Of a stretch of DNA of 38,417 nt, positions 13,382-37,496 are shown one piece after another. A program made the position numbers and the translations under genes. The stretch comes from Candidatus Portnoybacteria bacterium RIFCSPLOWO2_01_FULL_43_11 (GTDB lineage Bacteria; Patescibacteriota; Minisyncoccia; Portnoybacterales; UBA2143): the NCBI GenBank assembly GCA_001819605.1, contig MHNE01000015.1, positions 1 through 38,417 on the forward strand, written 5' to 3'. The notes beneath the pieces are model-generated. The model was not told the origin of the DNA, ran no database searches, and saw only the letters and a list, made by a program, of their open reading frames with translations. The stretch's first letter is position 1. Every line of letters begins with the position of its first letter.

Positions 13382-13650
13382 TCTTATATATTGTAAGAAA
13401 TCCAACCGTTGTTTACATTTCTTGAGAAAAGAGCAGAAAATCTTTTCCCAACCAGCATATTGGAGCAATAGAGACAAATTACCGAAGCGAGCGAGAGGGA
13501 GACCGAAACTGCGGGAGCGAAGCGACCAAATTTCGGAGGGTTCCCCGAAGCGAGCGAGGATAATTTACCTATTGCGAAGATCCGGCTGGCGGGAAAAGAT
13601 TTTCTGCTGAATATAAAAATCTAAACAACACTCGTAATTCTTACATAAGA
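13382..13650 (+). repeat. ~270-nt imperfect palindromic element filling the mrdA-greA spacer
   Basis: Nested stems: TGTAAGAA/TTCTTACA, GTTGTTTA/TAAACAAC, a perfect 18-bp stem at 13432-13449/13591-13608, CCAGC/GCTGG, GCAATAG/CTATTGC, CCGAAA/TTTCGG. The apex is GG-GA-GC-GAA-GC-GA-CC. Confidence 0.9.
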
Positions 13651-13653
13651 ATT

Positions 13654-15654
13654 TTACCGACTAAACCACCATTCAAATACTTCCTTAGCTACCGGCACAG
13701 CCGCCCGGTGCCCTTCGCCGCCTCCTTCAACCACCACGGCTAAAGCGATTTCCGGGTTTTCATAAGGGGCAAACCCGGTAAACCAAGCATGAGTTTTATC
13801 AGAAACGCCAAATTGAGCTGTGCCGGTCTTTCCGGCCGCTCTTACGGGCAATGTCCCTAAAGCCTGAACTGAACCGGAAATAACCGATTCGCGCATTCCT
13901 TTTCGCACTATGGCTAAATTTTCTGAACTGATAAAATTTTCCCGGATAATTTTTGGCTCGATGTCTTTTATGGTATTTTTCTCTGAATCCATAATTTTGT
14001 CAACTATCTGCGGCTGATATAAAATCCCGTTGTTCGCAATGGCCGCGGTGGCCAAGGCCATCTGAAGCGGCGTAACCATTATGTCTCCCTGACCAATAGA
14101 GGCATGGTAAGTATCGCCGATATACCATTTTTCTTTCTTGGTTTCTTCTTTCCAGTTTTCGTCAGGAATCAAACCGTCTTCTTCAAAAGGCAAATCTATA
14201 TCAGTCAATTCACCCAAACCGAATAATTGAAGGTATTTTTTAATTCTATAAATGCCTAAACCATCTATATTTCCGTAGCCGCCTCCGACAGTGTAAAAAT
14301 AAACATTGCAGGATTCGGCGATTGCCTTTATTATATCAGTTAATCCGTGAATTTTCCAATCTGAAAAGGTATAGACGACTTGCGGATTATACGGATTGAC
14401 CACGGAAATTTCGCCCTGACTGTCATTGATTTTCTGACTGGGGCTGACTATTCTTTCTTCAAGAGCCGCGCTGCCGATTAAGGGCTTAATGATTGAACCG
14501 GGCGGATATTGTCCGGCTATTGCCCGGTTAAAAAGCGGTTGGTCGGGATTCTTAATCAAAGCGTCGTAATCAGCCGAAGAAATGCCTTGAGAAAAAATAT
14601 TATTATCAAAAGCGGGAAAACTTACCAAAGCGAGAATACCGCCATTTTTTACGTCAACAACTACGGCAGCCGCTTTTGTAACTTTTCCGCCCGGAGCGGA
14701 AATTTGACCAATTATTCTATTCAAACTCTGATAAAGTTTATCCTGCAGTCCTTTATCAATAAAAAGACCCAGACTTTGACCCGGCTCAGATGGCTTAAGC
14801 GCTAAGAATTTCCGGCTTTGTCCGAAAACATCCACCTCTATTTCTTCTTTTCCGGCCTCTCCTCTTAATAATTCCTCGTACTGAAGCTCTAAACCGGTTT
14901 TGCCGATCTCGTCATCCGGCCCGTATGAAAATTGAGACCCCAAATCAGCTGAATTAATCTCTCCCGTATAACCCAAAACATGAGAAAGAATCGGAGCTTC
15001 ATTTTCTCCTAAAATATATTGACGATGAATATTTCTGACCAGTCTCACGCCTGGCCACTCGCTGACCAAACTCTCCAGAACCAAAGCGGCTGACTGTTCT
15101 ATGTTTTTTACTAAAACTACCTGGGCTGTTTTGCCTTGAGCTTCTTTTATCTTTTTTTTAAACTCTTCTGATTTGTTGCCTGCTTTAGGAATTTTTTCTT
15201 CGCTCCGCGCTAAAGAATTTTTCTCCTGGTTTTCCCTTAAAATAACACTTATTTCTTTTAGAATCTCTTCTTGAACTGAAGCTGAATTTACCAGAAAATC
15301 CGCTAAATTAACCCTTAAATCAAAAGCCGGAACATTATAAACCAAAGGATCTCCGTAACGGTCATAAATAATGCCCCGGGGCGCGGCTAAAGAATATGTT
15401 TTAATTCTATTCCCTTCGGCTAAGTTCCTGTAATATTCACCCTTGATAATCTGAAGATACCCGGTCCGGATAAATAAAGCAAAAAGAGCGCTGACTATTA
15501 AAATATAAAAAAGGATAAAATTACGCGCTTTAATAGGCTGTTCTAATTTCCCTTTATCTTCCAAGGAACGAATGGCCTCGGCGTCTAAAAAAATCTCCTC
15601 GGCTTCAATGTTTTCATCTGAATTGTTTTTGATAGAATATTTTTTTAATCCCAT
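13654..15654 (-). CDS. mrdA: Penicillin-binding protein 2 (class B)
   Basis: APRGIIYDR, GKTGLE, PGSIIK (SxxK), SCN (SxN), KTGTAQ; downstream of mreCD. Confidence 0.97.
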   Translation of the reverse strand: MGLKKYSIKNNSDENIEAEEIFLDAEAIRSLEDKGKLEQPIKARNFILFYILIVSALFALFIRTGYLQIIKGEYYRNLAEGNRIKTYSLAAPRGIIYDRYGDPLVYNVPAFDLRVNLADFLVNSASVQEEILKEISVILRENQEKNSLARSEEKIPKAGNKSEEFKKKIKEAQGKTAQVVLVKNIEQSAALVLESLVSEWPGVRLVRNIHRQYILGENEAPILSHVLGYTGEINSADLGSQFSYGPDDEIGKTGLELQYEELLRGEAGKEEIEVDVFGQSRKFLALKPSEPGQSLGLFIDKGLQDKLYQSLNRIIGQISAPGGKVTKAAAVVVDVKNGGILALVSFPAFDNNIFSQGISSADYDALIKNPDQPLFNRAIAGQYPPGSIIKPLIGSAALEERIVSPSQKINDSQGEISVVNPYNPQVVYTFSDWKIHGLTDIIKAIAESCNVYFYTVGGGYGNIDGLGIYRIKKYLQLFGLGELTDIDLPFEEDGLIPDENWKEETKKEKWYIGDTYHASIGQGDIMVTPLQMALATAAIANNGILYQPQIVDKIMDSEKNTIKDIEPKIIRENFISSENLAIVRKGMRESVISGSVQALGTLPVRAAGKTGTAQFGVSDKTHAWFTGFAPYENPEIALAVVVEGGGEGHRAAVPVAKEVFEWWFSR

Positions 15655-16159
15655 AAAAAATCAAGGTAATTAGAATCGTGTTATAGACCGCTTCTAAAAG
15701 AATTGAATAAAATGAATACGGATTAACAGGCCAAGACCCGTCTTTAAAAGAGATTGAACCAAAAAGAACAGAAATCGGAATAAACAGTCTAATCAAAATA
15801 ATTAAAATCAGGTTATAAAAAAGAGTGGCCGCGAGCGATAAAAGAACTAAGCTCCCAAAATTTATCCGGCTGAAAATATTTTTAATCAGCCAATCAACTA
15901 AATATGTAAGACCGATAAAACTTAAACTGAACACCCCGAAGGGCAAACCGCTGAATAAATCTAAAAGCAAACCGGCCAATATAATCGGCCAGAATTTCCG
16001 GCTGTCGGACAAATCTTTCTGGAAAACCAAGATAACCCAAGCTAAAATAAAAACTAAAACTAAATTAGGCGCTGCCCCGTAAATACCCAAGGCCGGCCAA
16101 AAACTGGTTTGACTGATAACGGATATCAATAAAATCAGAACAATGCTTAAAGATTTCAT
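15614..16159 (-). CDS. mreD: Rod shape-determining protein MreD
   Basis: Polytopic; PNLVLV and GLLLDLFSGLPFG; lies between mreC and mrdA. Confidence 0.9.
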   Translation of the reverse strand: MKSLSIVLILLISVISQTSFWPALGIYGAAPNLVLVFILAWVILVFQKDLSDSRKFWPIILAGLLLDLFSGLPFGVFSLSFIGLTYLVDWLIKNIFSRINFGSLVLLSLAATLFYNLILIILIRLFIPISVLFGSISFKDGSWPVNPYSFYSILLEAVYNTILITLIFYGIKKIFYQKQFR

Positions 16160-16947
16160 CTTATTACAAAAACTCTGTCTATTTTCCCGAAATCCGCCGC
16201 GGGTCTGATAATCGCCTCTTTGAAAACCTGCGGCTGGCTGGAAATAACTTTTTCAATTTGACCAATAAAAATCCCTTTTGGAAAAAGATTAGCCAAGCCG
16301 GAAGTAATTACGGTTTGATTAGACTCAATTTTCTCGTCTTGAGCTATCCAATCCATAATTAAGCTGTTATAAGATCCCCCTCTGATAATCCCGCTGATTC
16401 CGGATTCCTGAATCAAAGCGTTAACCCGGCTGCCGGGATAAGTAATCAGCAAAACTTTGGCCGTTGAATTTGAAACTTGAGAAATCCTTCCCACTAAAAG
16501 ATTGCCGGCCGCGATCACTGTTTCTCCTGCCTTTAAGCCGTCTTTTTCTCCTTTATCAATTAAAATATACTCCCCTAAATTGGCCGGACTTTGTCCGATA
16601 ACATCGGCTAAAATCAATTGCCCTTTAATTTGTTCCGGTAAATCTATTTGCTGGCGAAGGAATTTATTTTCCCGGGCTGTTTCTTTTAATCCAGCCAATT
16701 CCCCCTTTAATTTCCTGTTTTCTTCCTGATATTCAATATTTTGAGAATTAAGCCGTTTGATATTTTTTAATAAATCAATAATATCCTTAAACTTCAGACT
16801 AATCTGATAAGTGGATTTTTGGAGAGGCGCCGTTATCCGAAAAAAAATATCTTTGGGCTGTTTTAATAATCCCTGACCGTTTATAAAAATTAAACCGATA
16901 ATCGTCAAAAGGGCTAAAATTACGGGTTTTTTAAATATTTTTTTCAT
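16156..16947 (-). CDS. mreC: Rod shape-determining protein MreC
   Basis: TM helix, coiled coil (ENKFLR), IDKGEKDG, LVGRI, VITSG...FPKGIFIG. Start set at ATG 16947, 7 nt after TGA-TAAACT. Confidence 0.95.
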   Translation of the reverse strand: MKKIFKKPVILALLTIIGLIFINGQGLLKQPKDIFFRITAPLQKSTYQISLKFKDIIDLLKNIKRLNSQNIEYQEENRKLKGELAGLKETARENKFLRQQIDLPEQIKGQLILADVIGQSPANLGEYILIDKGEKDGLKAGETVIAAGNLLVGRISQVSNSTAKVLLITYPGSRVNALIQESGISGIIRGGSYNSLIMDWIAQDEKIESNQTVITSGLANLFPKGIFIGQIEKVISSQPQVFKEAIIRPAADFGKIDRVFVIR

Positions 16948-17032
16948 CACAGGCAGTTTATCATAAATAAAAAATCCCAACAATACCAACTAATTTGTCA
17001 GGTTTAAAATTAAAAATAATAAAAATGTAAGA

Positions 17033-17194
17033 CTAAACTGACTTTTCTTCTTCGGATTCGGTCGGTTCTTCCTTGCTCATCGAAGACGTCTCGGTCCCGC
17101 CCATTTCTTCCTCTCCCTTTCCTTTTCTAGACATTGCCCACCAAATTATACCGATAATTACTACTGCCGCGATACCGATATAAACCCATGTCAT
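17033..17194 (-). CDS. Small (53-aa) single-pass membrane protein with acidic tail, below the ORF-track cutoff
   Basis: Translates as MTWVYIGIAAVVIIGIIWWAMSRKGKGEEEMGGTETSSMSKEEPTESEEEKSV*. AAGGAG lies 8 nt before the ATG, with a TTGGAA-16-TAAACT promoter candidate upstream. Confidence 0.8.
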   Translation of the reverse strand: MTWVYIGIAAVVIIGIIWWAMSRKGKGEEEMGGTETSSMSKEEPTESEEEKSV

Positions 17195-17261
17195 ATTACT
17201 TTCTCCTTTCTGTCGCTTAGGCGACTAAATTTAGTTTAGCATATTTTAATTATTTTCCAAA

Positions 17262-18569
17262 CTAGAACTCTGTGGATAACTTCCAAACATCCCCGGCGCC
17301 CATTGTTATAACTACATCATTTTTTTTAAGGTGTTTTTTTAAATAATTTGCCGTCTTGGGAATGTCAGGAATATAGTTCACCCTTGCTTGATGCTCAAGA
17401 ATTGATTTTACCAGGTCTTTTGAATGCACTCCCCCTCTTTTTTCCCGAGCCGAACCATAAATATCCAAAATTATCACTTCGTCGGCCATATTAAAAGAAC
17501 GGGCAAAATCATTTAAAAGAACTTTAGTTCTCGTAAAAGTATGAGGGTGGAAAACGCACCAAATTTTTCTATCAGGATAAAGTCGTTTAGCCGCCTTTAA
17601 AGTAACTCTCACTTCTGTTGGGTGATGAGCGTAATCGTCAATAATTAAAATTCCATTTTTGAGTTTTTTCCTAATTTCAAATCGCCGCGCTGTTCCCTTG
17701 AATCTTTCTAAAATCTCTTTAGCTTTTTTAACATCAAGACCTAACTCTCTGACTAAAGTTAAAACAGCCAAAGCGTTCAGCCGATTATGCTCGCCCGGCA
17801 ATTCTAAAAAAAGCTCGCCAAATTTTTTAAAATCTTCTTGACGATATAATAGAATTTTACAAGGCGTTTTCTCTATAACTTCTTTAATGGTTTTGTCGCC
17901 GCCCCAACCGATAAACAAGCCGTCCTTCGGCAGCCTGGAAATTAATTTTAAAAAAGATTCTTTATAATCCTTAAAACTTCTAAAAAAATCAGGGTGGTCG
18001 TATTCAATATTAGTTAAAATTAAAATTTTAGGCCGGTATTTTAAAAACTTATTTTGATATTCGTCTATTTCAGCCGCGAAGTATTTAGACCTGCCGACCC
18101 GGGCATTGCTTTTCCACTCTAAAACCTTACTTCCGACTATAACTGTCGGATCCAAACCCAACCCCTCTAAGACTCGGCCAAGCATTGCTGTCGTAGTGGT
18201 CTTGCCGTGGGTTCCCGCTACTCCCAAACCATAGCTCTCTTTAAAAAGTAAAGCTAAAATATCAGAATAAGAATAAACGAATTTTCCTTGTTTTTTAACA
18301 TATTTAATCTCCGGATGAGAATCTTTATAGGCGCTCGAAGCCACGATTAAATCCGCGTCTTTGGGAACATTTTTAACTTTAAACCCTTCAAAAACTTTTA
18401 TTTTCAATTTATTTAAAACTTCATCGGTAAAAAATTTCTCGTGGGTGTCAGAACCCGAAACTTCAATGCCCCGGCCCTTTAAAACTTGAGCCAAAGCAGT
18501 CATCCCCACTCCTTTAATCCCGATAAAATAAGCTTTTTTTGTTTTTGAGAGATTTATTATTTTTGTCAT
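17262..18569 (-). CDS. murC: UDP-N-acetylmuramate--L-alanine ligase
   Basis: FIGIKGVGM, GTHGKTTT, TNIEYDHPD, DDYAHHPTE, MGAGD. Start set at ATG 18569. Confidence 0.97.
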   Translation of the reverse strand: MTKIINLSKTKKAYFIGIKGVGMTALAQVLKGRGIEVSGSDTHEKFFTDEVLNKLKIKVFEGFKVKNVPKDADLIVASSAYKDSHPEIKYVKKQGKFVYSYSDILALLFKESYGLGVAGTHGKTTTTAMLGRVLEGLGLDPTVIVGSKVLEWKSNARVGRSKYFAAEIDEYQNKFLKYRPKILILTNIEYDHPDFFRSFKDYKESFLKLISRLPKDGLFIGWGGDKTIKEVIEKTPCKILLYRQEDFKKFGELFLELPGEHNRLNALAVLTLVRELGLDVKKAKEILERFKGTARRFEIRKKLKNGILIIDDYAHHPTEVRVTLKAAKRLYPDRKIWCVFHPHTFTRTKVLLNDFARSFNMADEVIILDIYGSAREKRGGVHSKDLVKSILEHQARVNYIPDIPKTANYLKKHLKKNDVVITMGAGDVWKLSTEF

Positions 18570-18622
18570 TTTATATTTAACTATTTCGTAAGCAAGCAAA
18601 TATACTTTAATATTTTTTCACT

Positions 18623-19315
18623 TTAATAAATTCTTGATTTAATCACCAACCAAGGAAATACCACAACGGCCTTAAAAATTCTTTTAACGCGCCGTGGCTC
18701 TTGAATCAATCGCCACAGCCATTCCAAACCAATAATCCTTAAAATCTTCGGCGCCCGGGGAATTTGCCCGGCTATAAAATCAAACGCGCCGCCAACGCCC
18801 ATCGCTAATTTAATTAAAGGCATTTTCCCTAAATTTTCAACTATCCATTTTTCCTGCTTTGGGGCGCCAAAAGCGACAAATAAAATACCTTGACTAAAAA
18901 GTACTTCCCGAGCCTCAAACGCCTTAATATTTAACAGGTAGTACTTCTTTTTTAAATTATTTACTACACTTTCCGCCACCCCCTCCCTGCCTCCTAATAA
19001 AAAAACCGGCCAATTTTTTCGGCTGGCCAAATTACAAATACTTTCAATTAAATCAACGCCGGTAATTCTCTGTTTTAAGGGCTGACCCAAAAACCAGGAA
19101 GCAAAAACCAAACCAACACCGTCCGCTACGGCCAAGTCCGCTTGATTCAAAATCTTTTTAAATTCATCGTCATTTTGAGCTTTAACTAAAAATTCCGGAT
19201 TAGCCGTGACAATATAATGCTGTTTTCCGTCCGTCATAAATCGCTCTACTTTTTTTAAGGCCTTGCTTGCGGTTAAATTATCAATTTTAACGTCAAGAAT
19301 CTTTATTTTAAGCAT
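18623..19315 (-). CDS. WecB/TagA/CpsF family glycosyltransferase
   Basis: VTANPE, VADGVG, RITGVDL, GAPKQEKW, GVGGAFD, GLEWLWRL. Confidence 0.95.
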   Translation of the reverse strand: MLKIKILDVKIDNLTASKALKKVERFMTDGKQHYIVTANPEFLVKAQNDDEFKKILNQADLAVADGVGLVFASWFLGQPLKQRITGVDLIESICNLASRKNWPVFLLGGREGVAESVVNNLKKKYYLLNIKAFEAREVLFSQGILFVAFGAPKQEKWIVENLGKMPLIKLAMGVGGAFDFIAGQIPRAPKILRIIGLEWLWRLIQEPRRVKRIFKAVVVFPWLVIKSRIY

Positions 19316-19331
19316 TAATAAATCAAAAGAA

Positions 19332-19514
19332 AGGATAGCTACTTACATTTTGCGAAATTGTGAAGTTTTGGAAACAGATAAACGAGTGGAGTCAGAAGGG
19401 GAGCCCGATGGAGGCCGCCTGAAAGGCGGCCGACATTGGAGGGGCATCCCCCTGACGGAACAAGTATTATCTGTCCAAAACGAAAGTATGAAGTAAAATG
19501 TAAGTAGCTATCCT
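19332..19514 (+). repeat. 183-nt palindromic element with perfect 20-bp terminal inverted repeats, overlapping the thpR stop
   Basis: AGGATAGCTACTTACATTTT (19332-19351) / AAAATGTAAGTAGCTATCCT (19495-19514). Inner stems: GTTTTGGA/TCCAAAAC, ACAGATAA/TTATCTGT, GTCAG/CTGAC, GGGGA/TCCCC. Apex GGCCGCC-TGAAA-GGCGGCC. Confidence 0.9.
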
Positions 19515-20074
19515 CCCAACGGTGTCGATTCTAAAACCACGTACTCCGCCCCATCTCTTAATAATCGGCTCTCCATTACTTCTATTGACTCAACTAAAAA
19601 AGACAAAGAAACTTCCTTTTCTATATTGGGCTTTGAGGGCATTAATCGCCACTCTCTCTGCCTGATTCTCGCCAAAGTAATGTGAGGACGAAAAGCCCGA
19701 ACTTCTTTACGATTGTAACCGCTCTGGTTTGAATCTAATAAATGACCTTCAAAATCATCTTTCAATTCAGCCAAAGCTAAATTTTCCTCCCCCTCCAGCC
19801 AAATTATCCGGGGAGAGCGGCCGGGCGGCCCAAAACAAATCCTTTTTAATTCAATTTCAAATGGTTGATGCCTCCTGCCTGTTTCTTTCGCTGTTTGACA
19901 AACCTCTAACATCTCTTCATCTCCGGCATAGCCGATAAAAACCAAAGTGATGTGAAGACTTTGCTTTTTAGTCCACCTGACCGGCAAGCTCGTCCACTCC
20001 TCTTGCCAATTTAATATTCTTTTCTTAATATATTCCGGCAAATTAATAGCCGCGAAGATCCGTCGTTTTTTCAT
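19508..20074 (-). CDS. thpR: RNA 2',3'-cyclic phosphodiesterase (2'-5' RNA ligase, 2H family)
   Basis: RIFAAI, two HxT motifs (LHITLVFIG, FRPHITLAR). Start set at ATG 20074; the upstream ORF-track extension overlaps the divergent gene. Confidence 0.95.
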   Translation of the reverse strand: MKKRRIFAAINLPEYIKKRILNWQEEWTSLPVRWTKKQSLHITLVFIGYAGDEEMLEVCQTAKETGRRHQPFEIELKRICFGPPGRSPRIIWLEGEENLALAELKDDFEGHLLDSNQSGYNRKEVRAFRPHITLARIRQREWRLMPSKPNIEKEVSLSFLVESIEVMESRLLRDGAEYVVLESTPLGG

Positions 20075-20125
20075 GTGTCGCCTTGTATTATACCTCTTTC
20101 TTGATATACTACAAGTATAATTACA

Positions 20126-20581
20126 ATGCCCAAGAAAAAAAATAAAAAACGGGGAATAAAAAAACAAAAAGAAACCGCAATCCAACAGATTGTTAATTAT
20201 TATTTCCATACCAAGGGTTTAAGTTTGAACCAGATTAAAAATAACGCTAAAAAAAGAAAGATAATTTATTCCCGATTCACTAGGCCGGCCAAACAGCTTT
20301 TGGAGCTGGCCGGGTCAATCAGAGCCGCGAAAAAAGCCGTCAGCAAAGTGGCTAAATGGGCCAAATCCAGAAATTTGGACTACGCCATTGAAACGGTCTT
20401 TAAAAAATGGCTGGAATTGGACAGATTAAAGCCAAAAGAAATCGTCAAGAAACCATTTTTTGACGATAATCCGATGATTTGGTCAGCGACTAAAAAGAAA
20501 TGGTATGTCATAAGAGACGATGGCCAATGGTTGGAATTCGCGGGCCAGGAATCAGAAATAGAATGGCGGATAATAAAATAA
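20126..20581 (+). CDS. Basic hypothetical protein
   Basis: 151-aa Lys/Arg-rich ORF divergent from thpR, followed by a terminator-like hairpin. Confidence 0.75.
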   Translation: MPKKKNKKRGIKKQKETAIQQIVNYYFHTKGLSLNQIKNNAKKRKIIYSRFTRPAKQLLELAGSIRAAKKAVSKVAKWAKSRNLDYAIETVFKKWLELDRLKPKEIVKKPFFDDNPMIWSATKKKWYVIRDDGQWLEFAGQESEIEWRIIK

Positions 20582-20606
20582 CCCTCAAGAAAATTACTCT
20601 TGAGGG
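20582..20606. terminator. Hairpin between convergent genes (likely terminator)
   Basis: CCCTCAAGA-AAATTAC-TCTTGAGGG, followed by TTATTTT on the minus strand. Confidence 0.65.
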
Positions 20607-20626
20607 CTAGAAAAAGATTTTAACCT

Positions 20627-20833
20627 TTAAGCCTTTTTAAAAATTATCATTATAGCCCCCACAAGAAGTGCAAACAACCAAAAAACTGTTAGAAGCGAAA
20701 GAAATAAGGATTTTTTAAGTTTGTTATTTATTTGAATACGACTTCCTCTTTCAAAGTCTTGGCAATATTCTTTTGCCACAATAAAAGAAAGAAAAAAACC
20801 CACTATTAAATACCCCATTATTAACCATTTCAT
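20627..20833 (-). CDS. Small two-TM hypothetical protein
   Basis: 68 aa, two hydrophobic segments, SD-like GAGGTG upstream. Confidence 0.65.
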   Translation of the reverse strand: MKWLIMGYLIVGFFLSFIVAKEYCQDFERGSRIQINNKLKKSLFLSLLTVFWLFALLVGAIMIIFKKA

Positions 20834-20876
20834 TTTATCTCACCTCTCTTTATTTTAAAAAGTTAAAAAAGAACAA

Positions 20877-21383
20877 ATGATTATCCCCATCCAAACTAAT
20901 CCTAATAATCCCATTTTACGGCAAAAAGCTAAAGAAGTCAAGGAAATTACCGCTGAAATTAAGCGGCTGATTTTAGATATGGAAGAAACCATGGAGAAAG
21001 CGGCCGGAGTCGGGCTGGCCGCGCCTCAAATTGGCCAATCGCTTCGGGTGCTCGTCGCCAAATCAAATGATGAACCCCGCACCTTTCGCGGACAAAGTAT
21101 TTTTGCGCGAAAACGCGGCCCGCAAAAGGTGCGGGGTGAAATCATCGCTCTGATTAATCCGGAAATTAAAAAATTTTCTCGGAAAAAAGTCGTGATGGAA
21201 GAAGGGTGTTTAAGCTTGCCTAAACAATTCTCTCTTATAGAGCGACCGGCTAAAATTAAAGTAAAAGGATTAACTGAAGAAGGCGAGAAAATTAAAATTA
21301 AAATAAACGGACTCTTAGCGCGGATTATCCAACACGAAATTGACCATTTGGACGGGATTTTAATTATAGATAGAATCAAATGA
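20877..21383 (+). CDS. def: Peptide deformylase
   Basis: GVGLAAPQIG, EGCLS, QHEIDHLDG. Confidence 0.98.
   Translation: MIIPIQTNPNNPILRQKAKEVKEITAEIKRLILDMEETMEKAAGVGLAAPQIGQSLRVLVAKSNDEPRTFRGQSIFARKRGPQKVRGEIIALINPEIKKFSRKKVVMEEGCLSLPKQFSLIERPAKIKVKGLTEEGEKIKIKINGLLARIIQHEIDHLDGILIIDRIK
21074..21137. repeat. Palindromic element inside def
   Basis: Perfect 13-bp inverted repeat ACCCCGCACCTTT / AAAGGTGCGGGGT, extended by GCGG/CCGC; encodes PRTFRGQSIFARKRGPQKVRG. Confidence 0.85.
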
Positions 21384-22342
21384 AAAAATTAAAAATTATA
21401 TTTATGGGCACCCCGGATTTTGCCGCGCCTGCTCTTAAGCAATTAGTCAGTAATAATTATGAAATTTCAGCGGTGATTACCGCGCCGGACAAACCGATCG
21501 GCAGAAAACAAGAAGTCACTCCCCCGCCCATTAAAAAACTGGCTCTTCAATATAAAATACCAGTTCTTCAGCCAGAAAAAATCTTAAACTCGTCTTGGCC
21601 GAAGCCAGATCTCAAATCTCAAATCTTAAATCTTAATCCTGATTTAATCGTGGTTTCCGCTTATGGAAAAATTATTCCAAAAGAAATTTTGGACATCCCC
21701 CAATACGGCTCTTTAAATATCCACCCTTCGCTTCTGCCTAAATATCGCGGCCCCTCGCCTATTCAATTCGCTATTTTAAACGGCGAAAAAATAACCGGCG
21801 CGACCATTATGCTCATGGACGAAAAAATGGATCACGGCCCGATTCTTGCTCAAGAAAAAATAGAAATTCCGTCAGACGAAACCAGCCAAACGCTTCATGA
21901 TAAATTAGCTCAATTAGGAGCTGATTTACTAATCAAAACTATTCCTCAATATGTTCAAGGCGAAATCAAACCAAAGCCGCAAGATGAAAAAAATGCCAGC
22001 TATACTAAAATATTAACCAGAGAAGACGGAAAAATTGACTGGCGAAAAAGCGCTGAAAGCATTGAACGGCAAATCAGGGCTTTTACTCCCTGGCCCGGGG
22101 CCTGGACCATTGACGGAAAAAGATTAAAAATCCTTAAGGCGAAAGTGGTGGATAAAAAAGACGGATTGACTTTTAAAACCAAAAGGGGTTATTTACTTTT
22201 AGAAATGGTCCAGCCCGAAGGCAAAAAAACAATGAGCGGCGAGGAATTCATAAGAGGTTATGGGCGAGGAAATATGCCCTTGAGCGACATAGAATTGCGA
22301 GCGGGCATGGTGCCGCCGAAGGCGGCGAGCGAGCAATTATAA
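21380..22342 (+). CDS. fmt: Methionyl-tRNA formyltransferase (C-terminus extended by a palindromic element)
   Basis: IFMGTPDFA, NIHPSLLPKYRGPSPIQ, MDHGPI, RAFTPWPGA, QPEGKK. Confidence 0.98.
   Translation: MKKLKIIFMGTPDFAAPALKQLVSNNYEISAVITAPDKPIGRKQEVTPPPIKKLALQYKIPVLQPEKILNSSWPKPDLKSQILNLNPDLIVVSAYGKIIPKEILDIPQYGSLNIHPSLLPKYRGPSPIQFAILNGEKITGATIMLMDEKMDHGPILAQEKIEIPSDETSQTLHDKLAQLGADLLIKTIPQYVQGEIKPKPQDEKNASYTKILTREDGKIDWRKSAESIERQIRAFTPWPGAWTIDGKRLKILKAKVVDKKDGLTFKTKRGYLLLEMVQPEGKKTMSGEEFIRGYGRGNMPLSDIELRAGMVPPKAASEQL
21579..21634 (+). repeat. Period-7 tract (AAATCTY) with embedded mini-hairpin inside fmt
   Basis: AAATCTT...TGGC-CGAA-GCCA, then AGATCTC AAATCTC AAATCTT AAATCTT (21607-21634). 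Confidence 0.75.
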
Positions 22343-22402
22343 CGAGCAAAAATTCTCGCTGGGAATTTTTGCGTTCGCTCAAGGGCATATTTCCTCGCCC
22401 AT
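22260..22402 (+). mobile_element. 143-bp MITE-like element with perfect 28-bp terminal inverted repeats
   Basis: ATGGGCGAGGAAATATGCCCTTGAGCGA (22260-22287) and its exact reverse complement (22375-22402). Internal hairpins GCCGCC-GAA-GGCGGC and GCAAAAATTC/GAATTTTTGC. Mobility is inferred. Confidence 0.75.
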
Positions 22403-22414
22403 TTGTCCAATATT

Positions 22415-23446
22415 ATGTCATTTTCAATCGGCATCATCGGCCTCCCTAATGTCGGCAAATCAACTTTATTCAAGGCCCTGACCAAACAGCCAGTGGATAT
22501 TTCCAATTACCCGTTTTGCACCATTGACCCGAATGTCGGCATAGTTAAAGTGCCTGATGAACGGCTTCTTAAAATAGCGGCCGTCATAAATCCCCAAAAA
22601 ATTACTCCCACTATCATAGAATTCGTTGATATTGCGGGCTTGGTTAAAAACGCTCACCTAGGCGAAGGATTGGGCAATCAATTTTTGGCCCGCATCCGGG
22701 AAACAGACGCAATCTGCCAAATTGCGCGGGCTTTTGAAAACGAAAATATAGTTCATACTGAAGGCCGGACCAACCCCAAAAGAGACATTGAAATTATTAA
22801 TAAAGAATTAATAATGAAAGACCTGGAAACAATAGAAAAAAGACTGGAAAAAACCAAAAAAGAAACTAAATCAGGCAATAAAGAAGCCACGCGAGAATTA
22901 GAAATCTTAAATAAAATTCATGAAATATTAAAAAGGGATAAAATGATATTAGAATATGAAACGGCTGAAATGAAACAAATAATTAAAGAACTTCAATTAC
23001 TGACCGCCAAGCCGATGATTTATGTTTTTAATGTCAGCGAACAGCCGATAAGCAGTGAAGAAAATATTGCGTCCATTAATCTTCAGCTTGAATCGGAACT
23101 TTCCGAGCTTGCGCCAGAAGAAATAAAAGAATTAGAACTGCCTCCTTCTAAACTCAATGAACTTATTAAAACTTGCTATCAGGCCCTAAATTTAATCACT
23201 TTCTATACGGTAACCGGCGGCAAAGAAACCCGGGCCTGGACACTTAAGAACGGCTTAAAAGCGCCTCAAGCCGGCGGGGTGGTTCATACTGATTTTGAAA
23301 AGAATTTTATCAGGGTTGAAGTAATTAACTGGCAAAAATTAGTTGAAGCCGGCGCTTGGTCTAAAGCCCGTGAAAAAGGCCGGCTCCAAACAGAAGGGAA
23401 AGATTATATTGTCAAAGACGGAGATGTTATTGAATTCAAGATATAA
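22415..23446 (+). CDS. ychF: Redox-regulated ATPase YchF
   Basis: GIIGLPNVGKST, NYPFCTIDPN, DIAGLV, GEGLGNQFL, EGKDYIVKDGD. Start set at ATG 22415. Confidence 0.98.
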   Translation: MSFSIGIIGLPNVGKSTLFKALTKQPVDISNYPFCTIDPNVGIVKVPDERLLKIAAVINPQKITPTIIEFVDIAGLVKNAHLGEGLGNQFLARIRETDAICQIARAFENENIVHTEGRTNPKRDIEIINKELIMKDLETIEKRLEKTKKETKSGNKEATRELEILNKIHEILKRDKMILEYETAEMKQIIKELQLLTAKPMIYVFNVSEQPISSEENIASINLQLESELSELAPEEIKELELPPSKLNELIKTCYQALNLITFYTVTGGKETRAWTLKNGLKAPQAGGVVHTDFEKNFIRVEVINWQKLVEAGAWSKAREKGRLQTEGKDYIVKDGDVIEFKI

Positions 23447-23485: not shown

Positions 23486-23989
23486 ATGAATGACCAGCCA
23501 AAACTCTACCAACTCACCTATCTTCTTCCTCCTTCCTTAGATGAAAAAGGAGCAGTTGAAATTAGCCAAAAAATAAAAAAGTGGATTGAAGAAAAACAGG
23601 GAAAAACAGAAAAAGAAGAAACGGTCAATAAAAACTTGGCTTATCCGATTAAAAAATATCATCAAGCCGTCTATTCAAATTTATCTTTTCGAATAATCCC
23701 GGAGTTCATAAAAGAAATTCAAGAATATTTAAAATTAGAAAATAATATTTTACGATATGCGATTCAAAGAGAAATGCCCCGCCGTTCTCCGTCTAAGAGC
23801 GCGAAACCGGCCCGGGTAAAAATCGGACCGGCTAAAGTTTATCCGGACCGTGATTTATTCAGACAAGTTCACCTTAAAGAAGAAAAAACAAGGAAACCGA
23901 TAGAAAAACCGACCCCCGCCTCGCCGCAAAAAGAAAAAGTGAAATTAGAGGAGTTGGACAAAAAGCTGGAGGAAATATTAAAAGAGTAA
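23486..23989 (+). CDS. rpsF: 30S ribosomal protein S6 with long C-terminal extension
   Basis: YQLTYLLPP, LAYPIKK, ILRY; rpsF-ssb-rpsR synteny. Confidence 0.92.
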   Translation: MNDQPKLYQLTYLLPPSLDEKGAVEISQKIKKWIEEKQGKTEKEETVNKNLAYPIKKYHQAVYSNLSFRIIPEFIKEIQEYLKLENNILRYAIQREMPRRSPSKSAKPARVKIGPAKVYPDRDLFRQVHLKEEKTRKPIEKPTPASPQKEKVKLEELDKKLEEILKE

Positions 23990-24083
23990 TCACTAATCAA
24001 TCGCTAATTTTATCTCTAATAATCGCGAATAAAAAATTATTTATTAGAGGAAATTTGCGATAAAATTCGGGATTGATTAGGGA
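23990..24083. repeat. Inverted array of TCNCNAAT motifs (two 44-nt arms)
   Basis: Left arm 23990-24033 vs the reverse complement of 24040-24083 match at 34 of 44 positions by my manual alignment; four motif copies per arm. Confidence 0.8.
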
Positions 24084-24093
24084 TATAATACTT

Positions 24094-31734: not shown

Positions 31735-34700
31735 TTATTGCTCCCTTTTTAATCCCTTTAATTCCACATTCAGCCCCAGCGCTTTTAATTCGCTTATTAA
31801 AACATTAAACGAGGCCGGCACATTAGGGGCTTGAATCGGCTTGCCGCGAATAATGGCGTCATAGACATTAGCCCGACCCAAAACATCATCCGACTTAATT
31901 GTCAACATCTCCTGCAAGGTATAAGCCGCTCCATAACCCTCCAGGGCCCAGACTTCCATTTCGCCGAAACGTTGACCGCCGAATTGAGCTTTGCCGCCCA
32001 AGGGCTGCTGGGTAATCAGAGAATAAGGACCCACTGAACGCATATGGATTTTATCCTCAACTAAGTGAAGCAGTTTCATAATATAGATGTAACCGACCGT
32101 CACCGGCTGATCAAACGGCTCGCCGCTTCGGCCGTCGTATAAAATAACCTTGCCGTTTTCCGGCAATCCGGCTTTTCTTAATTGATCCTTAATGTCTTTT
32201 TCTTTAATCCCTGAAAGAGCCGGACTCAAAGCCGGCTGACCGAGATGTTTAGCGGCCCAGCCCAAATGGGTTTCTAAAATCTGCCCGATATTCATCCGTG
32301 AAGCCACGCCTAATGGATTAAGAATAATTTCTATCGGCGTCCCGTCGGCTAAGTAAGGCATCTCCTCTTCGGGTAAAACTTTGGCAATGACGCCTTTGTT
32401 GCCGTGGCGGCCGGCTAATTTGTCGCCCACCGCCACTTTGCGCAGCTGCGCCACTTCCACCTGAATGCTTTTAATTACGCCGGCCTGCAGTTTATCTCCC
32501 CGGTCGCGGGAAAAAATCTGGATGTTAACCACCCGGCCCCGCTTGCCGTGAGGCAGACGCAAAGAAGTATCTTTGACATCGCGGGCTTTCTCTCCAAAAA
32601 TAGCCCTTAATAATCTTTCTTCGGCCGTTAAATCCGTTTCGCCCTTAGGCGAAATTTTACCGACCAAAATATCATTGGGTCTTACCTCTGCCCCGATTCG
32701 GACAATTCCCTCTTCGTCCAAATCTTTTAATCTTTCTTCGCCAACATTAGGAATATCCGGAGTGGTGATTTCCGGACCCAGTTTTGTTTCCCGAACATCG
32801 CAGGTAAAGCTTTCAATGTGAATGGAAGTATAACGATCGTCTCTGACTAATTTCTCGGAAAGAATAATCGCGTCTTCAAAATTATTTCCCCGCCACGACA
32901 TAAAAGCCACCAAAACATTCTGGCCCAAAGCCAGTTTGCCGTGATCCGTGGCCGCCCCGTCGGCTAAAATGTCTCCCTTTTTTATTTTTTGTCCCTTTTT
33001 TACTATAGGATGCTGATTAATGCATGTGTATTGATTGGTCCGGCTAAAAGAATGGAAAAGATATTTTTTGGATTTCTTGTCAGTTTTTAGAATTACCTGA
33101 TCAGCGTCCACTTCTTCCACAAACCCGTCTTCTTCCGCGATAATTAACTGGCCTGAATCGCGAGCCGCTTTTTCTTCTATGCCCGTACCCACCAAAGGCG
33201 CTTCCGGATTAATACAGGCCACGGCCTGACGCTGCATATTTGAGCCCATTAGAGCCCGGTTCGCGTCATCGTGCTCCAAAAAGGGAATCAAAGAAGTGGC
33301 CACGCTGATGCATTGCTGGGGCGAAATATCTATGAAATGAACTTTAGAACGTTCAATAAGACCCGGCTGTCCTTGAATACGGGCTTCTACTCTTCTGTCT
33401 AAAAACTCGCCCTTCTTACTTAACTTTATTCCAGCATGAGCAATATTGTATTTTCCCTCTTCCCAGCCATCAAGATAAACAATCTCGTCTGTTATCCGCC
33501 AATTTTTTACTTTTCTATAAGGCGTCTCAATGAAACCATGTTCGTTCAACCGGGCATAAGTGGCTAAATGACCGACCAAACCGATATTCGGACCTTCCGG
33601 AGTTTCAATGGGACAAATCCGGCCGTAATAACTGGAATGCACATCCCTTACCTCAAAACCGGCCCGCTCTTTGGTGAGGCCGCCCGGCCCCATGGCTGAC
33701 AAACGGCGCTTATGCTCCAGTTCAGCCAAAGGATTAATTTGATCCATAAACTGGGACAATTGAGAAGAAGTAAAGAATTCCTTAATTGAAGCGATAAAAG
33801 GCCTGGCGTTAATCAACTGCCCGGGAGTTAAACCGTATATCTCCAAGGTAGACATCTTGTCGCGGATAATTCTTTCAGTCCTCGTCAAGCCGACCCTTAA
33901 CTTATTCTGAAGCAATTCGCCCAATGTCCTCACCCGGCGATTGCCCAAATGGTCAATATCGTCCGGTTTAGAATTGGGCGTATTATTCAGTCTGATAATT
34001 TCTTTAATAACGGCGATAATGTCTTCCAAATGTAAAATACGGTCTTCTTTGGTAATTTCCTTTTTTCCGCCGGACGCGCCTTTTATATCCTCTAATCTTT
34101 GATTAAACTTCCACCTGCCTACTTCTTTTAAATCATATCTTTCAAAACTAAACATGGCGGCAATAAAAGAACGGGCATTGTCCACTGTGGCCAAATCGCC
34201 CGGCCTGATTCTTTTGTAAACTTCAATAAAACCCTCGTCAGCGCTCTTTGACGAATCTTTAGCCAGAGTGGCTTCTATATAATCCGTTTCGCCTTTATTG
34301 ATATCGCTGAAAATATTTTTAATGTCCTCATTAGTTAATTTGTCATCCTGAGGGCGAAGCCCGAAGGATCCCGTAGATTTAGTATTTTTGCCGCGGGATT
34401 CTTCGCCCGCTGGCTGGCGGGCTTCAGAATGACGAAGTTTTTCTAAGGCCGCAAAAACTCTCAATAAAGCCGTGGCCGGGGCCTTTCTTTTCCGGTCAAT
34501 CTTTACGCCAATGGCGCCGTCTAAATCCGTTTCAAATTCCAGCCAGGCGCCGCGGTTGGGAATGACTTTTGCCCCGAACAATTGCCGGCCGCGGACAAAT
34601 TGAGAAGTAAAAAAAACCCCGAACGACCGAATCAATTGAGAAATGACCACTCTTTCCACGCCGTTAACGATAAAAGTGCCTCGTTTGGTCATTATGGGAA

Positions 34701-34995
34701 ATTCGCCCAAATAAATCTCCTGCTCTTTGACTTCTTTTGTTTTTTTATTTATTAACTTCAAACGGCAACGCAAAGAAGCCTCATAAGAAGCGTTATGGGC
34801 TTTAGCTCCAACTTCATCATATTTTGGCTCGTCTAAATGATAATCTAAAAAATAAAGCTCTAAGTCTTTGCCGCTCCAGTCTCTGATTGGACTTATCTCG
34901 TCAAAAAGCTCTCTTAATCCCTTCTCTAAAAACCACTTATATGAATGGAGTTGTGTTTCAATTAAATTAGGGAGCCGGAAACCTCCTTTGAGCAT
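31735..34995 (-). CDS. rpoB: RNA polymerase beta subunit
   Basis: [65 protein letters not shown]. Confidence 0.99.
34341..34434. repeat. Inverted pair of (C/T)GTC-tagged REP-like units in frame inside rpoB
   Basis: TGTCATCCTGA-GGGC-GAA-GCCC-GAAGGATCCCG ... CGGGATTCTTC-GCCCGC..GCGGGC-TTCAGAATGACG; encodes [31 protein letters not shown]. Confidence 0.9.
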
Positions 34996-35087: not shown

Positions 35088-35090
35088 CCC

Positions 35091-37496
35091 CTACAAAGCG
35101 GGCCGACTAAGTTCGTTAATCTTTGCCTCAACTTCCGCGTTGCCCGGCGCAAGCTGATTAACAATCTGAAACTGAATTAAAGCTTCCTGATTTCTTCCTT
35201 TCATTTGATAAGACGCTCCTAATCCGTATCGGGCGTTAGCGTGCTGGGGCGTTACAATAACTGATTGTTCAAACAATTCAATGGCCCTGTCAAAATTCTT
35301 CAAGTTAAAATGCATCCGACCCATCTGAAAATAAATTTCCGTGGCCGCTCCGGCTAAGGCGGATCCCCTTTTAAAACTAATGCCCTTTAAACGATCCAAA
35401 GCTCCTTCCAACCGCTTAGCCGCTTCTTCCAAATTGCCTTTTCTTTCATAAACCATGGCTAATTGAATATGAGCGTCCAGGTAATTTGGTTTTAAGTCAA
35501 CCGCTCTCTGGCATTGATTTAAAATCTCGTTACTGATTTCCTGTTCCGTCATCAGATTAAGCCGACAGAGTTCTCTGTAGAAAAACGGGTTAGTTGGTTC
35601 CAGTTCTAAAGCCCGCTTAAATGAATCAACGGCAAAGGGCGAAATCCCGCTGACTAAATTACTTAAATCACGATAGATACCGCCTAAGTTCTCCCAGGTC
35701 ATAACTAATTTTGGACTTATTTCCGTCGCTTGTCTGGCTTGGTCAATGGCGCCGGCCGCGTAATTTTGTAAAAGCTGAATATCCCGCCCATCTTCCGGCT
35801 TTTGAACCTCTCTCCAGGCCATAACCAAATAAACTTGGGATAAGCTAAAACGATAATTAACCCGATATTTATTAAGATTAACCGCTTTTTCAAAATTAGG
35901 GAGCTTATTGTCTATATCGCTTTGATTCAAGCCCTTAAGATAATAAACGTCAGCCGCGTAAAATCTGGCGCTTAAATAAAATAATCCCAAAACAGCAAAA
36001 ACAAGAACAAGAAATATGGTGCCTAAAACTAAACCAAATTCCGGCCATTTTTTAAACGAGAAACTTATCTTTGAACGAGGAATACCAAGATTATCTCGCC
36101 AAGCCACGATACCCAAACCGGTAAACAGCCAAAAAGAAAATGATAAAACAGTATTTTCCAAGTAAATAAATTGGGCGATAAAAAAAGAAAGCCAGGGGAA
36201 AAAAATTGGTAAAATAACTGCTCCCGCCGTCATCCTGAGCGAAGCGAAAGATTCCGTATTAGAGCCATTTTCTTCGGAATTCTCCGGTAAAACTCCAGAA
36301 TGACGTTGTTTCCTTAAAAACATACCCATCACAAATAAAAACATTACGACAACTGCCAAATAACTTAAAATTCCCAATATGCCAATGGCGCTGACCAGTT
36401 CCATTAAATAACTTTGTCCTTTGTCAAACCTGATATTCCAAAATCTGTTATCGTTAAATTCCTCCTGTTTGAATTTAGAAAAGCCGTATAAGAAAGTGTC
36501 CGGCCCGGAGCCCAAAACCGGATAATTTTTAACAACCTCTTCCGTAATAAAGCCGGCGGTCTTGTAATCCAAAATAACTTCTTGAGGCAAGGGGTTATTT
36601 GTAAAAATAGAAGTCCCTTGTTTTGCTTTTAATACAACTCCGAAAAATCCGGCGGCTGAAATAACAATCAGAACAATCGGCAAAAGCAGAACATTAACTC
36701 GCTCCCTAAACAGCCGCGTCCAAAATGACGCGAGCAAAAGAATCAGCATCGTTATTCCCAAAACAACCCAAGCGGCCCGGAAATCAATCAGGAGTAATAA
36801 AATTATAGCGGCCAATAGAATTAAGTAATGAGTAATAAGTAACGGATAATGAGTAATTGATTCTTTATTCTTAATTCCGATTAAGACTCTTCCTACAACC
36901 AATCCAATCACAGCCGCTAAAAAAATCGCCAATCCCTCCAAACTTCCGGTCATCGGATTAAATGTTTTTAAACTCATTAAGCCCGGCAATCGCTCCCCTA
37001 ACCAGGGAATTTTCGTCCAAATTCCCAAAATAGAAAAATAAGCCGCGATAATAACCAAAAAACTTGAAGCTAAAAACCAATTCAATAAAGAATAAACATT
37101 ACTCTTTATTCTCCGTTCTTTATTCAGTGACGCATTATTAACCACCACAAAATACATTAAGAGTATTGTTAAAAATCCGGCCGTTGCGCCGCTAAACCGG
37201 CCGTAAAACCCCAGCCAGGAAGAAATGCCGTCTACGGAAAAAACAGCGCTTAAAATTATCACGAGCATTAAAACTAAAATTGGAATATCCAAAGCCGTCC
37301 TCTGCCAAACTATTTTTTTCCGGACAATAACCATTTTAAAAAGCCAGACTAAAAAAACAAGTCCGACTAAGAAAAATAATAAATACTGCTTATTAAACTC
37401 ATAGGCCTCTAAAGTAAAAGGCAGCCAAAATAACGGCGCTAAAAAAACAAGCAGACAAATAGATGTTCTGATAATAAAATTGCTTAATTTTAACAT
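35091..37496 (-). CDS. Polytopic membrane protein, O-antigen ligase (Wzy_C)-like core with C-terminal TPR repeats
   Basis: About 12 TM segments, PVLGSGPDTF loop motif, TPR-type repeats (FKRALELEPTN, AVDLKPNYLDAHIQLA, NARYGLGASY). Confidence 0.8.
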   Translation of the reverse strand: MLKLSNFIIRTSICLLVFLAPLFWLPFTLEAYEFNKQYLLFFLVGLVFLVWLFKMVIVRKKIVWQRTALDIPILVLMLVIILSAVFSVDGISSWLGFYGRFSGATAGFLTILLMYFVVVNNASLNKERRIKSNVYSLLNWFLASSFLVIIAAYFSILGIWTKIPWLGERLPGLMSLKTFNPMTGSLEGLAIFLAAVIGLVVGRVLIGIKNKESITHYPLLITHYLILLAAIILLLLIDFRAAWVVLGITMLILLLASFWTRLFRERVNVLLLPIVLIVISAAGFFGVVLKAKQGTSIFTNNPLPQEVILDYKTAGFITEEVVKNYPVLGSGPDTFLYGFSKFKQEEFNDNRFWNIRFDKGQSYLMELVSAIGILGILSYLAVVVMFLFVMGMFLRKQRHSGVLPENSEENGSNTESFASLRMTAGAVILPIFFPWLSFFIAQFIYLENTVLSFSFWLFTGLGIVAWRDNLGIPRSKISFSFKKWPEFGLVLGTIFLVLVFAVLGLFYLSARFYAADVYYLKGLNQSDIDNKLPNFEKAVNLNKYRVNYRFSLSQVYLVMAWREVQKPEDGRDIQLLQNYAAGAIDQARQATEISPKLVMTWENLGGIYRDLSNLVSGISPFAVDSFKRALELEPTNPFFYRELCRLNLMTEQEISNEILNQCQRAVDLKPNYLDAHIQLAMVYERKGNLEEAAKRLEGALDRLKGISFKRGSALAGAATEIYFQMGRMHFNLKNFDRAIELFEQSVIVTPQHANARYGLGASYQMKGRNQEALIQFQIVNQLAPGNAEVEAKINELSRPAL
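36228..36305. repeat. CGTC-tagged REP-like element (78 nt = 26 codons) in frame inside the TPR gene
   Basis: CGTCATCCTGA-GC-GAA-GC-GAAAGATTCCG ... CCAGAATGACG; encodes RHSGVLPENSEENGSNTESFASLRMT. Same termini as the rpoB element. Confidence 0.88.
36824..36879. repeat. Period-7 tract inside the TPR gene
   Basis: AGTAATG AGTAATA AGTAACG GATAATG AGTAATT GATTCTT TATTCTT AATTCCG; encodes GIKNKESITHYPLLITHY. Confidence 0.75.

Follow-up and report, generated by a model that had tools for sequence, protein, structure and literature searches.

Five palindromic elements in a 38,417-nucleotide contig of Candidatus Portnoybacteria bacterium RIFCSPLOWO2_01_FULL_43_11 (MHNE01000015.1; hereafter the window, contig C15 of the assembly) share a fold in which tandem G.A steps interrupt a stem beneath a small hairpin, and the question they raise is whether this fold marks one mobile system and, if so, which enzyme serves it. 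An earlier note on this DNA (the original prediction) had taken the elements for substrates or products of a fold-recognising system whose enzyme lies outside the window, an interpretation that, as a whole, our analysis partly supports. The five elements are probably copies of four multi-copy families of selfish palindromic DNA repeats, here named A to D. Family A comprises the elements in rpoB and in a gene for a membrane/TPR protein. We propose, with a probability of roughly 0.7, that it is the miniature, gene-less derivative of a cassette composed of a hairpin, a gene for a GIY-YIG nuclease of ~95 amino acids, and an inverted hairpin; its hairpins likely represent a divergent class of Ssn-related motifs (SRM). 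The system itself is not unknown, as the main text of a 2025 report describes Ssn nucleases together with their hairpins (Chenal 2025, Nat Commun 16:2388, PMC11893778). Families B, C and D may be further palindromic elements at the DNA level, perhaps read by the same kind of protein.

A hairpin framed by tandem G.A steps

The assembly (702,366 bases, 33 contigs, ~39% G+C, 83.5% complete) was scanned for modules defined as an outer stem of at least 3 bp, GA, an inner stem of at least 2 bp, a loop of 3-8 nt, GA, and the return of the outer stem. Counting both strands, it contains 54 such modules against 24.9 (standard deviation 5.8, maximum 33) in 15 dinucleotide shuffles. Modules built on other tandem mismatches show little or no excess (AG, 21 observed against 18.1 in shuffles; AA, 167 against 159.9; GG, 23 against 14.7; AC, 12 against 10.8; CA, 24 against 17.1), and the GA module is therefore real and above chance. 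AT-rich sequences at background level make up roughly half of the 54 matches, and it is G+C-rich copies with GAA-type loops that account for the excess. By itself, the heptamer GCGAAGC shows no enrichment in the window: it occurs 9 times where 5.7 are expected, a count attained by 8 of 100 shuffles.

All five modules first quoted are in place as written, each within a larger palindrome (Table 1), and all four families keep both GA steps while their stems co-vary. None of the outcomes that the original prediction had named as fatal was encountered: the module is commoner than in shuffled sequence, further genomic copies of the rpoB/TPR family are numerous (29 of 41 genomes, and at least 120 contigs in a broad scan), and orthologous sites in relatives are empty (rpoB, def, and the greA and wecG spacers) rather than occupied throughout. 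The description of the elements as dissimilar in sequence holds in part, since a family A variant shares ATTGC-GA-GC...GC-GA-GCAAT with the family of the element at 22260 (family B).

Family A half-sites and GIY-YIG nucleases

The rpoB element is composed of two half-sites, at 34343-34369 on the plus strand and 34398-34432 on the minus strand, with the form GTCAT-YCT-GA-minihairpin-GA-AGR-ATCCCG, and it is read through in frame as a 31-residue peptide. Across copies, the half-site consensus is 5' GTCAT, a 5-bp stem, GA, a mini-hairpin of 2-8 bp, GA, the return stem, and 3' CC-C/A-G, with a variant GTCATTGC-GA-...-GA-AGCAAT. GTCAT precedes nine of the ten half-sites of this genome (the other has ATCAT) and likewise those of relatives. 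Family A elements are tight inverted pairs of 71-111 bp, and BLAST recovers further copies on contigs C2, C8, C9, C18, C19, C25 and C27. In DNA fold predictions, the isolated rpoB half-site adopts the module first described (-6.3 kcal/mol), and the entire element as single-stranded DNA scores moderately against shuffles (z -3.9 and -3.5). The TPR-gene element is decayed: its left half-site features one stem mismatch, the right half-site has lost the GA steps, and its fold as single-stranded DNA is no better than that of shuffles (z -0.93 and -0.63). A hammerhead-like reading of CTGA...GAA in family A was dropped by eye because the core does not fit.

Our genome comparison covers this genome (G000) and 40 relatives, among which G001 belongs to the same genus. 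The half-site pattern TCATYCTGA-N5-20-GAAGRAT is present in 29 of the 41, with up to 126 copies (G028), and the same pattern read backwards is absent from all 41. Forward and reverse matches are about equally frequent across these genomes, rpoB carries its second GA half-site on the minus strand, and the 22260 element is sense to both fmt and ychF; a bias of the GA face to the plus strand, antisense to host or flanking genes, as first proposed, is thus not borne out. In a broad scan with one genome per species, the pattern was found in at least 120 contigs of many phyla by record titles, which among the matches listed include Chloroflexota, Acidobacteriota, Bacteroidota, several Patescibacteria groups, Nitrospirota, Omnitrophota, Verrucomicrobiota, Clostridia and others. 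The 183 half-sites among these matches pair Y with R as T-A 95 times, C-G 86 times, T-G twice and C-A never. An inner stem of at least 2 bp is found in 141 of them, 81 of which close on a GNA loop (GAA, GCA, GTA or GGA), and the commonest apex is GC-GNA-GC. Because the loci of the broad scan were picked with GA fixed, they are uninformative about the conservation of GA itself; under a relaxed pattern, GA/GA is kept in 44 of 51 sites within 238 kb of G028 and in nine of ten sites of this genome.

The covariation also identifies which structure is conserved. Within elements, 25 of 54 half-site pairs join a C-G to a T-A half-site, which breaks a long-range four-way junction as the conserved structure and leaves the local hairpin in its place. 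Copies appear in bursts, with ten near-identical 101-bp copies among the 17 elements within 238 kb of G028, and long open frames (at least 150 codons) house four of these 17. At the orthologous position of rpoB, G005 and G028 have no insert, G003 has a single ATTGC-type half-site, and the same-genus G001 (L066) has a different AT-rich repeat that encodes a DVKDV... insert.

The candidate enzyme emerged from the relatives, where matches to the Pfam GIY-YIG domain (PF01541) coincided in coordinates with half-sites. At two loci of G032, a half-site is followed by an open reading frame (ORF) for a ~95-aa GIY-YIG protein and an inverted half-site. We surveyed the 47 best small GIY-YIG loci by E-value and added two (L046 and L047) because their coordinates coincided with half-sites. 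Strong inverted repeats flank 25 of the 47 ORFs, against 6 of 300 random windows. GTCAT-type hairpins stand on both sides at seven of the 47 loci and on one side at one, in addition to the two that were chosen, and full-length cassettes were recovered at L046, L047, L041, L082, L086, L087, L096, L098 and L078. In a tree of the 49 proteins, all ten hairpin-flanked nucleases fall into one clade (support 100/97). A sub-clade within it (99/92) is associated with GA-interrupted hairpins in six of six cases, while its sister group has uninterrupted perfect hairpins in four of four. The ten ORFs encode 93-119 aa, six of them 93-96 aa, with a single GIY-YIG domain; those of L086, L087 and L096 are longer because the frame runs past the domain. 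Their best solved relatives in the PDB are two UPF0213 proteins with weak E-values (0.007 and 0.014), and NCBIfam provided no useful name. A profile of the clade finds members in 13 of the 41 genomes. Half-sites are present in 12 of these 13 (median 8) versus 17 of the 28 genomes without the clade (median 1), and the two counts correlate across the 41 genomes (Spearman rho 0.43, p 0.005, a value overstated by the relatedness of the genomes). The expectation of an enzyme beyond the window, with copies of the elements to be looked for beside RAYT/TnpA-Y1 or GIY-YIG genes, is upheld for GIY-YIG and the rpoB/TPR family; a HUH/RAYT enzyme is not supported, half-sites being absent from all five Y1 loci examined.

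According to the main text of the Ssn report, Ssn are single-domain GIY-YIG nucleases (cd10448) of ~94 aa that bind hairpin repeats, termed NTS in Neisseria and SRM in general, and cut single-stranded DNA just upstream of them, but not double-stranded DNA, RNA or the reverse strand. Binding and cutting of single-stranded DNA alone is reported there for four Ssn/hairpin pairs, the Ssn gene is typically flanked by its own inverted hairpins of 20-50 nt, and Rickettsia is among the SRM-rich genomes (PMC11893778). As far as that text describes it, the Ssn/NTS system resembles family A in its 5' GTCAT and 3' ATCC-C/A-G hairpin frame, in a one-domain nuclease gene between inverted hairpins with many scattered gene-less copies, and in nuclease and hairpin variants that go together. 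The L078 nuclease is itself flanked by an NTS within one mismatch of the consensus, as compared by eye, and this genome contains two near-consensus NTS copies of its own (C8:60958 and C7:3224). Family A differs in that tandem G.A breaks the stem, the apex is a 2-8-bp mini-hairpin with mostly a GNA triloop, the copies occur in tight inverted pairs that behave like miniature transposable elements, and elements reside in frame within essential genes, unlike N. meningitidis, where the report places 2% of NTS inside genes (PMC11893778). That main text makes no mention of Patescibacteria, Candidatus, triloop or G-A; the GA variant or these phyla may figure in its supplementary lists. A literature search on GIY-YIG with palindromes, transposable elements of the miniature inverted-repeat kind (MITEs), inverted repeats and the Candidate Phyla Radiation found nothing closer. 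The class of G.A/GNA hairpins with its own nuclease sub-clade appears to be new, as do the miniature pairs lodged in essential genes of very small genomes and the three other families with the same module.

If family A works as NTS and SsnA do in Neisseria, the hairpin would form on one strand when the DNA is single-stranded, and the nuclease would bind it and cut just upstream. An inverted pair would offer the same hairpin on both strands, and the nuclease may in this way cause the repeats to spread. To our knowledge, no site-specific nucleases other than Ssn act on single-stranded DNA alone.

Several observations weigh against the derivation of family A from a nuclease cassette. We know of no transposition or copying activity of Ssn shown by anyone. 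The hairpin-linked clade is absent from this assembly at 83.5% completeness, so its family A copies look non-autonomous, and six relatives (G005, G022, G001, G026, G019 and G017) hold 16-28 half-sites without it. Among the matches listed in the broad scan, only five of 120 diverse 8-kb loci include a GIY-YIG ORF, and only two have one within 40 nt of a half-site. The minimum-energy fold of a whole family A element as a single strand is the four-way junction rather than two local hairpins, and covariation cannot tell DNA from RNA. The ends of the copies inspected feature no consistent direct duplication of a target site, in an inspection that did not include a systematic comparison of filled and empty sites. 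Membership of the nucleases in the Ssn family (cd10448) is putative, drawn from architecture and hairpins. The published SRM pattern, HGTCWYN(0-2)YYVSBRHN(0-5)WNVSBRGN(0-2)RNCYNB (PMC11893778), matches none of the ten half-sites of this genome and cannot accommodate tandem G.A steps with a mini-hairpin inside; two of its three matches in the genome are the near-consensus NTS copies. Finally, no copy with an enzyme gene was found among the copies of families B, C and D examined, and these families lack both the 3' CCCG of Ssn-type hairpins and the 5' GTCAT that the main text of the Ssn report calls crucial (PMC11893778).

Families B, C and D and the competing explanations

The proposal that all five elements are folded-DNA substrates of a single system stands for the rpoB/TPR family. 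It loses ground for the 13432, 19332 and 22260 families, whose putative link to that system is the common GA module only, as no enzyme-bearing copy of them was found.

Table 1. Palindromic elements and GA modules of the window, with positions counted from its first nucleotide.
Feature	Position	Strand	Description
Outer inverted repeat around family D	13393-13417 (GTAAGAAATCC...TTGTTTACA) and 13620-13644		18/25 complementary by eye
Family D	13432-13608	+	Long hairpin between greA and PBP2 gene; 18-bp perfect outer stem
Family D module	13513-13527		GGGAGCGAAGCGACC (GG-GA-GC-GAA-GC-GA-CC)
Family C	19332-19514	+	Between WecG-like and LigT-like genes; core 19361-19486
Family C module	19408-19436		ATG-GA-GGCCGCC-TGAAA-GGCGGCC-GA-CAT
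Palindrome in def (20877-21383, plus)	21074-21137		18-nt arms ACCCCGCACCTTTCGCGG / CCGCAAAAGGTGCGGGGT; in-frame insertion
Family B	22260-22402	+	fmt-ychF junction; 28-bp perfect copy-specific outer stem; three-way-junction core
Family B module	22293-22338		AATTGC-GA-GC ... GC-GA-GCAATT enclosing GCCGCC-GAA-GGCGGC
Family A element in rpoB (ORF 31735-34995, minus)	34342-34433		Two inverted half-sites, ~20-nt spacer
rpoB module	34345-34369		ATCCT-GA-GGGC-GAA-GCCC-GA-AGGAT
Decayed family A element in membrane/TPR ORF (35091-37496, minus)	36229-36304		Read through in frame as ...RHSGVLPENSEENGSNTESFASLRMT...
TPR-gene module	36232-36252		ATCCT-GA-GC-GAA-GC-GA-AAGAT; one C.A mismatch, outer stem

Family B is the best sampled of the three, with copies on C20, C8 and C1 of this genome and in 13 of the 41 genomes (up to 13 matches per genome). 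Its core contains two hairpins, a variable one at 22312-22326 and another whose loop reads CTCGCTGG. In an alignment of 18 copies, 28 of 40 predicted pairs feature compensatory double changes and the GA columns are invariant, and the fold as DNA scores z -10.9 and -11.4. The fmt frame enters the element and takes its stop codon there, and secA reads through a copy in frame in three genera (G005, G010 and G023); SecA of this genome, examined for an empty site that might reveal the origin of the outer stems, lacks the whole variable region. Among the gene pairs around six copies, only those of L009 and L011 are orthologous. The fmt-ychF spacer of G001 (L237) contains a AGAATCTGGAAT AT-rich palindrome after fmt in place of family B. 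A pseudoknot between the loop CTCGCT and an internal-loop AGCGAG was rejected, because copies with CACGCT keep AGCGAG (by eye) and there is accordingly no covariation. As for the downstream gene, the ATG at 22415 (giving MSFSIG..., the start seen in G001) is a more probable start of ychF than the TTG at 22403 given by the ORF tool, which would make the element wholly intergenic on its 3' side.

Family C has 41-nt arms, 20 bp of them perfect and specific to the copy, and a DNA fold of -52.8 kcal/mol (z -12.6). It was found in two of the 41 genomes only: three contigs of G023, from another genus, carry core copies with 80-84% identity, each with its own outer stem, and the inner hairpin exhibits a compensatory change (GGCCGCC/GGCGGCC versus GTCGCC/GGCGAC). 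Family D (z -7.0 as single-stranded DNA) has no other copy in this genome or its 40 relatives. A wider search of 401 genomes of the class recovered it near full length in two distant genomes, G418 (E 8e-29) and G070 (three pieces), and as short, weak matches in 13 others; the distant copies contain the modules CC-GA-GTTC-ATCA-GAAC-GA-GG and CT-GA-GTC-CTGTGA-GAC-GA-AG. In G001, G003 and G005, both the WecG-LigT and greA-PBP2 spacers hold other hairpins, not families C and D. The outer arm pair around family D also encloses a canonical NTS-like hairpin pair at C8:60923-61096. Besides forming an outer palindrome arm in both places (13393-13417 and C8:60923-60949), its ~25-nt motif, which reads TGTAAACAACG..GGATTTCTTAC on the minus strand, is equally far upstream of the greA and adk start codons and could be promoter-related.

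Could these families have nothing to do with Ssn-type nucleases? They might be independent miniature palindromes or enlarged intergenic terminator hairpins that converged on the module because tandem G.A with a GNA loop makes an unusually stable hairpin. In favor of this explanation are the absence of an enzyme gene from every B, C or D copy found, the lack of both ends of the Ssn hairpin frame, and the unrelated hairpins in the same spacers of relatives; the module also recurs outside the four families, in the repeat at C8:21159 and C8:58954 and in the arms of a serine recombinase unit (C3:9143/10762). Set against this are GA steps that remain invariant in three separate families while the neighboring stems vary, an excess over shuffles that among tandem mismatches is clearest for G.A, and the sequence that family B shares with the family A variant flanking GIY-YIG genes. 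We consider convergence unlikely, although it is the most credible of the alternatives. Alternatively, families B, C and D, perhaps together with A, could be RNAs with a conserved structure, whether small RNAs, ribozymes or cis-regulatory elements, in which the G.A steps would be kink-turn or loop-E motifs. RNA often contains tandem G.A pairs, and the double changes of family B with its invariant loop and junction nucleotides, the very stable folds (z -7 to -12.6), and the orthologous positions that family B keeps in secA of three genera and, in two genomes, at one gene pair would all suit an RNA. However, Rfam yields no match in the window at the gathering score and none at E of 1 or below in window positions 13300-22500 and eight family B loci. 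Family B occurs in both orientations to neighboring genes (3 sense, 11 antisense, 1 unclear), five of its copies sit within long open frames that continue across them, and distribution is patchy among close relatives, with empty sites within the genus. Family A has two-fold symmetry, which gives neither strand a special status, and C-G-closed GNA triloops are a hallmark of DNA mini-hairpins rather than RNA. On balance an RNA role is improbable.

The layout of family A, two imperfect palindromes in inverted orientation, also recalls REPINs, the inverted pairs of repetitive extragenic palindromes (REPs), and a RAYT or IS200/IS605-type Y1 (HUH) transposase could in principle move it. Y1_Tnp (PF01797) occurs in 24 of the 40 relatives, many with RAYT-sized frames of 200-250 aa. 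However, this genome has no Y1_Tnp match, nor does G028 with its 126 half-sites; copy numbers are not significantly correlated (rho 0.25, p 0.12); and, of five Y1 loci examined among 36 listed matches, none carries a family A-type half-site and two have different palindromes of their own. A Y1 transposase is thus a very improbable agent. Returning to the GIY-YIG nucleases, a broader and rather speculative version of our proposal would make GA-hairpin-GA the recognition unit of an Ssn branch, in which one GIY-YIG sub-clade reads the fold, not the sequence, and serves families A to D and others across phyla. Spread through single strands would then tolerate or even prefer in-frame insertion in essential genes and, in families B to D, create or capture long copy-specific inverted flank duplications. 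We know of no transposition mechanism that gives such duplications.

Other repeats of the genome and known repeat systems

Beyond the four families, an in-frame palindrome of another type resides in def. In G001, G005 and G008, def lacks these ~20 residues. The arms are of a type that recurs on C2, C4, C11 and C28 and that, as ACCCCGCACC-type arms, flanks this genome's sole small GIY-YIG gene (C27:15330-15542), a gene of a clade other than the hairpin-linked one. In total, five GIY-YIG genes of this different clade, including the genome's own, are flanked by CCCCNCAC-type arms. Many small GIY-YIG ORFs also lie close to tRNA genes, with one within 300 nt in 30 of the 46 loci with an aragorn result shown (L040-L109). 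The ORFs of L040 and L043 have a duplicated portion of the tRNA gene on both sides, as though these nuclease genes homed into tRNA genes.

Several other repeats were noted in passing. The rpsF-ssb spacer (23989-24084) contains an AT-rich palindrome with 48-nt arms of ATCNCTAAT-like units and no G.A modules; its relatives on C29, C21, C11 (two) and C8 (two) make it a further repeat family. Two copies of the palindrome GGAGTAGC ... GCTACTCC (C8:21150-21215 and C8:58930-58995) each enclose two hairpins, one of the form GCGAAGC-GA-NC-NAA-GN-GA-GCTTCGC. At C3:9143-10786, a 493-aa serine-recombinase-like ORF lies between ~100-bp inverted repeats (by eye) whose arms contain TGCC-GA-GGCGC-GAA-GCGCC-GA-GGCA; the unit adjoins an apparent tRNA gene (by eye) and may be an integrated element. 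The rpoB and fmt-ychF sites are hot spots for unrelated palindromes, as G001 has AT-rich repeats at both the family A and family B positions. Likewise, in G005 a single palindrome, ...CAAGGTACGGCCTCAAAATTACTACCC..., representing another multi-copy family, occupies both the greA-PBP2 and WecG-LigT spacers (L255, L257). Within the window, a pair of 25-nt inverted repeats (84% complementary, 216 nt apart) spans 6099-6364, inside or next to the ORF at 5635-7125. The genes around the elements, all ordinary housekeeping genes named from their translations, are greA, the PBP2 gene, mreD, mreC, murC, the WecG-like and LigT-like genes, recA, rpoC, rpoB and the membrane/TPR protein gene on the minus strand, and def, fmt, ychF, rpsF and ssb on the plus strand.

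Family A shares traits with several known repeat systems. Like REPs and REPINs, it consists of numerous inverted imperfect palindromes, which in that system are thought to be recognized as single-stranded DNA hairpins, and it is associated with an enzyme gene that exists in single copy between its own repeats; the enzyme there is a Y1 transposase and here a GIY-YIG nuclease, and REPs are extragenic whereas the present elements also lie within coding sequences. Like MITEs, it is short and non-coding, forms near-identical copies, and has terminal inverted repeats in common with its nuclease-bearing relatives. Rickettsia palindromic elements (RPEs), which Ogata and colleagues reportedly found in 2000, are said to be inserted in frame and translated with the host protein in a reduced genome. 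The in-frame inserts in rpoB, def and the membrane/TPR protein gene, and in secA of relatives, are similar; unlike RPEs, family A has an identified autonomous relative with a nuclease gene. A link between RPEs and SRM is possible, given the place of Rickettsia among SRM-rich genomes. At the level of structure, d(GCGAAGC)-type DNA mini-hairpins and tandem sheared G.A mismatches are known physical chemistry. Family A has the same GNA loops and presents its 5'-GA-3'/5'-GA-3' steps in the sheared-pair arrangement, but unlike the model oligonucleotides these are natural genomic repeats, whose conformation is predicted from sequence.

In summary, GA/GNA targets that the published pattern misses, and that nevertheless occur in many phyla, would widen the catalogue of these enzymes and their targets and allow a clean test of fold versus sequence recognition; the range of Ssn specificities is also of practical interest. 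For the biology of these bacteria, even genomes of ~0.7 Mb carry several proliferating palindrome families, which lengthen essential proteins (RpoB, Def and SecA) and, in fmt, supply the stop codon. For annotation, the same elements account for the odd '...SEAKDL / ...FASLRMT' peptides that recur in predicted proteins.

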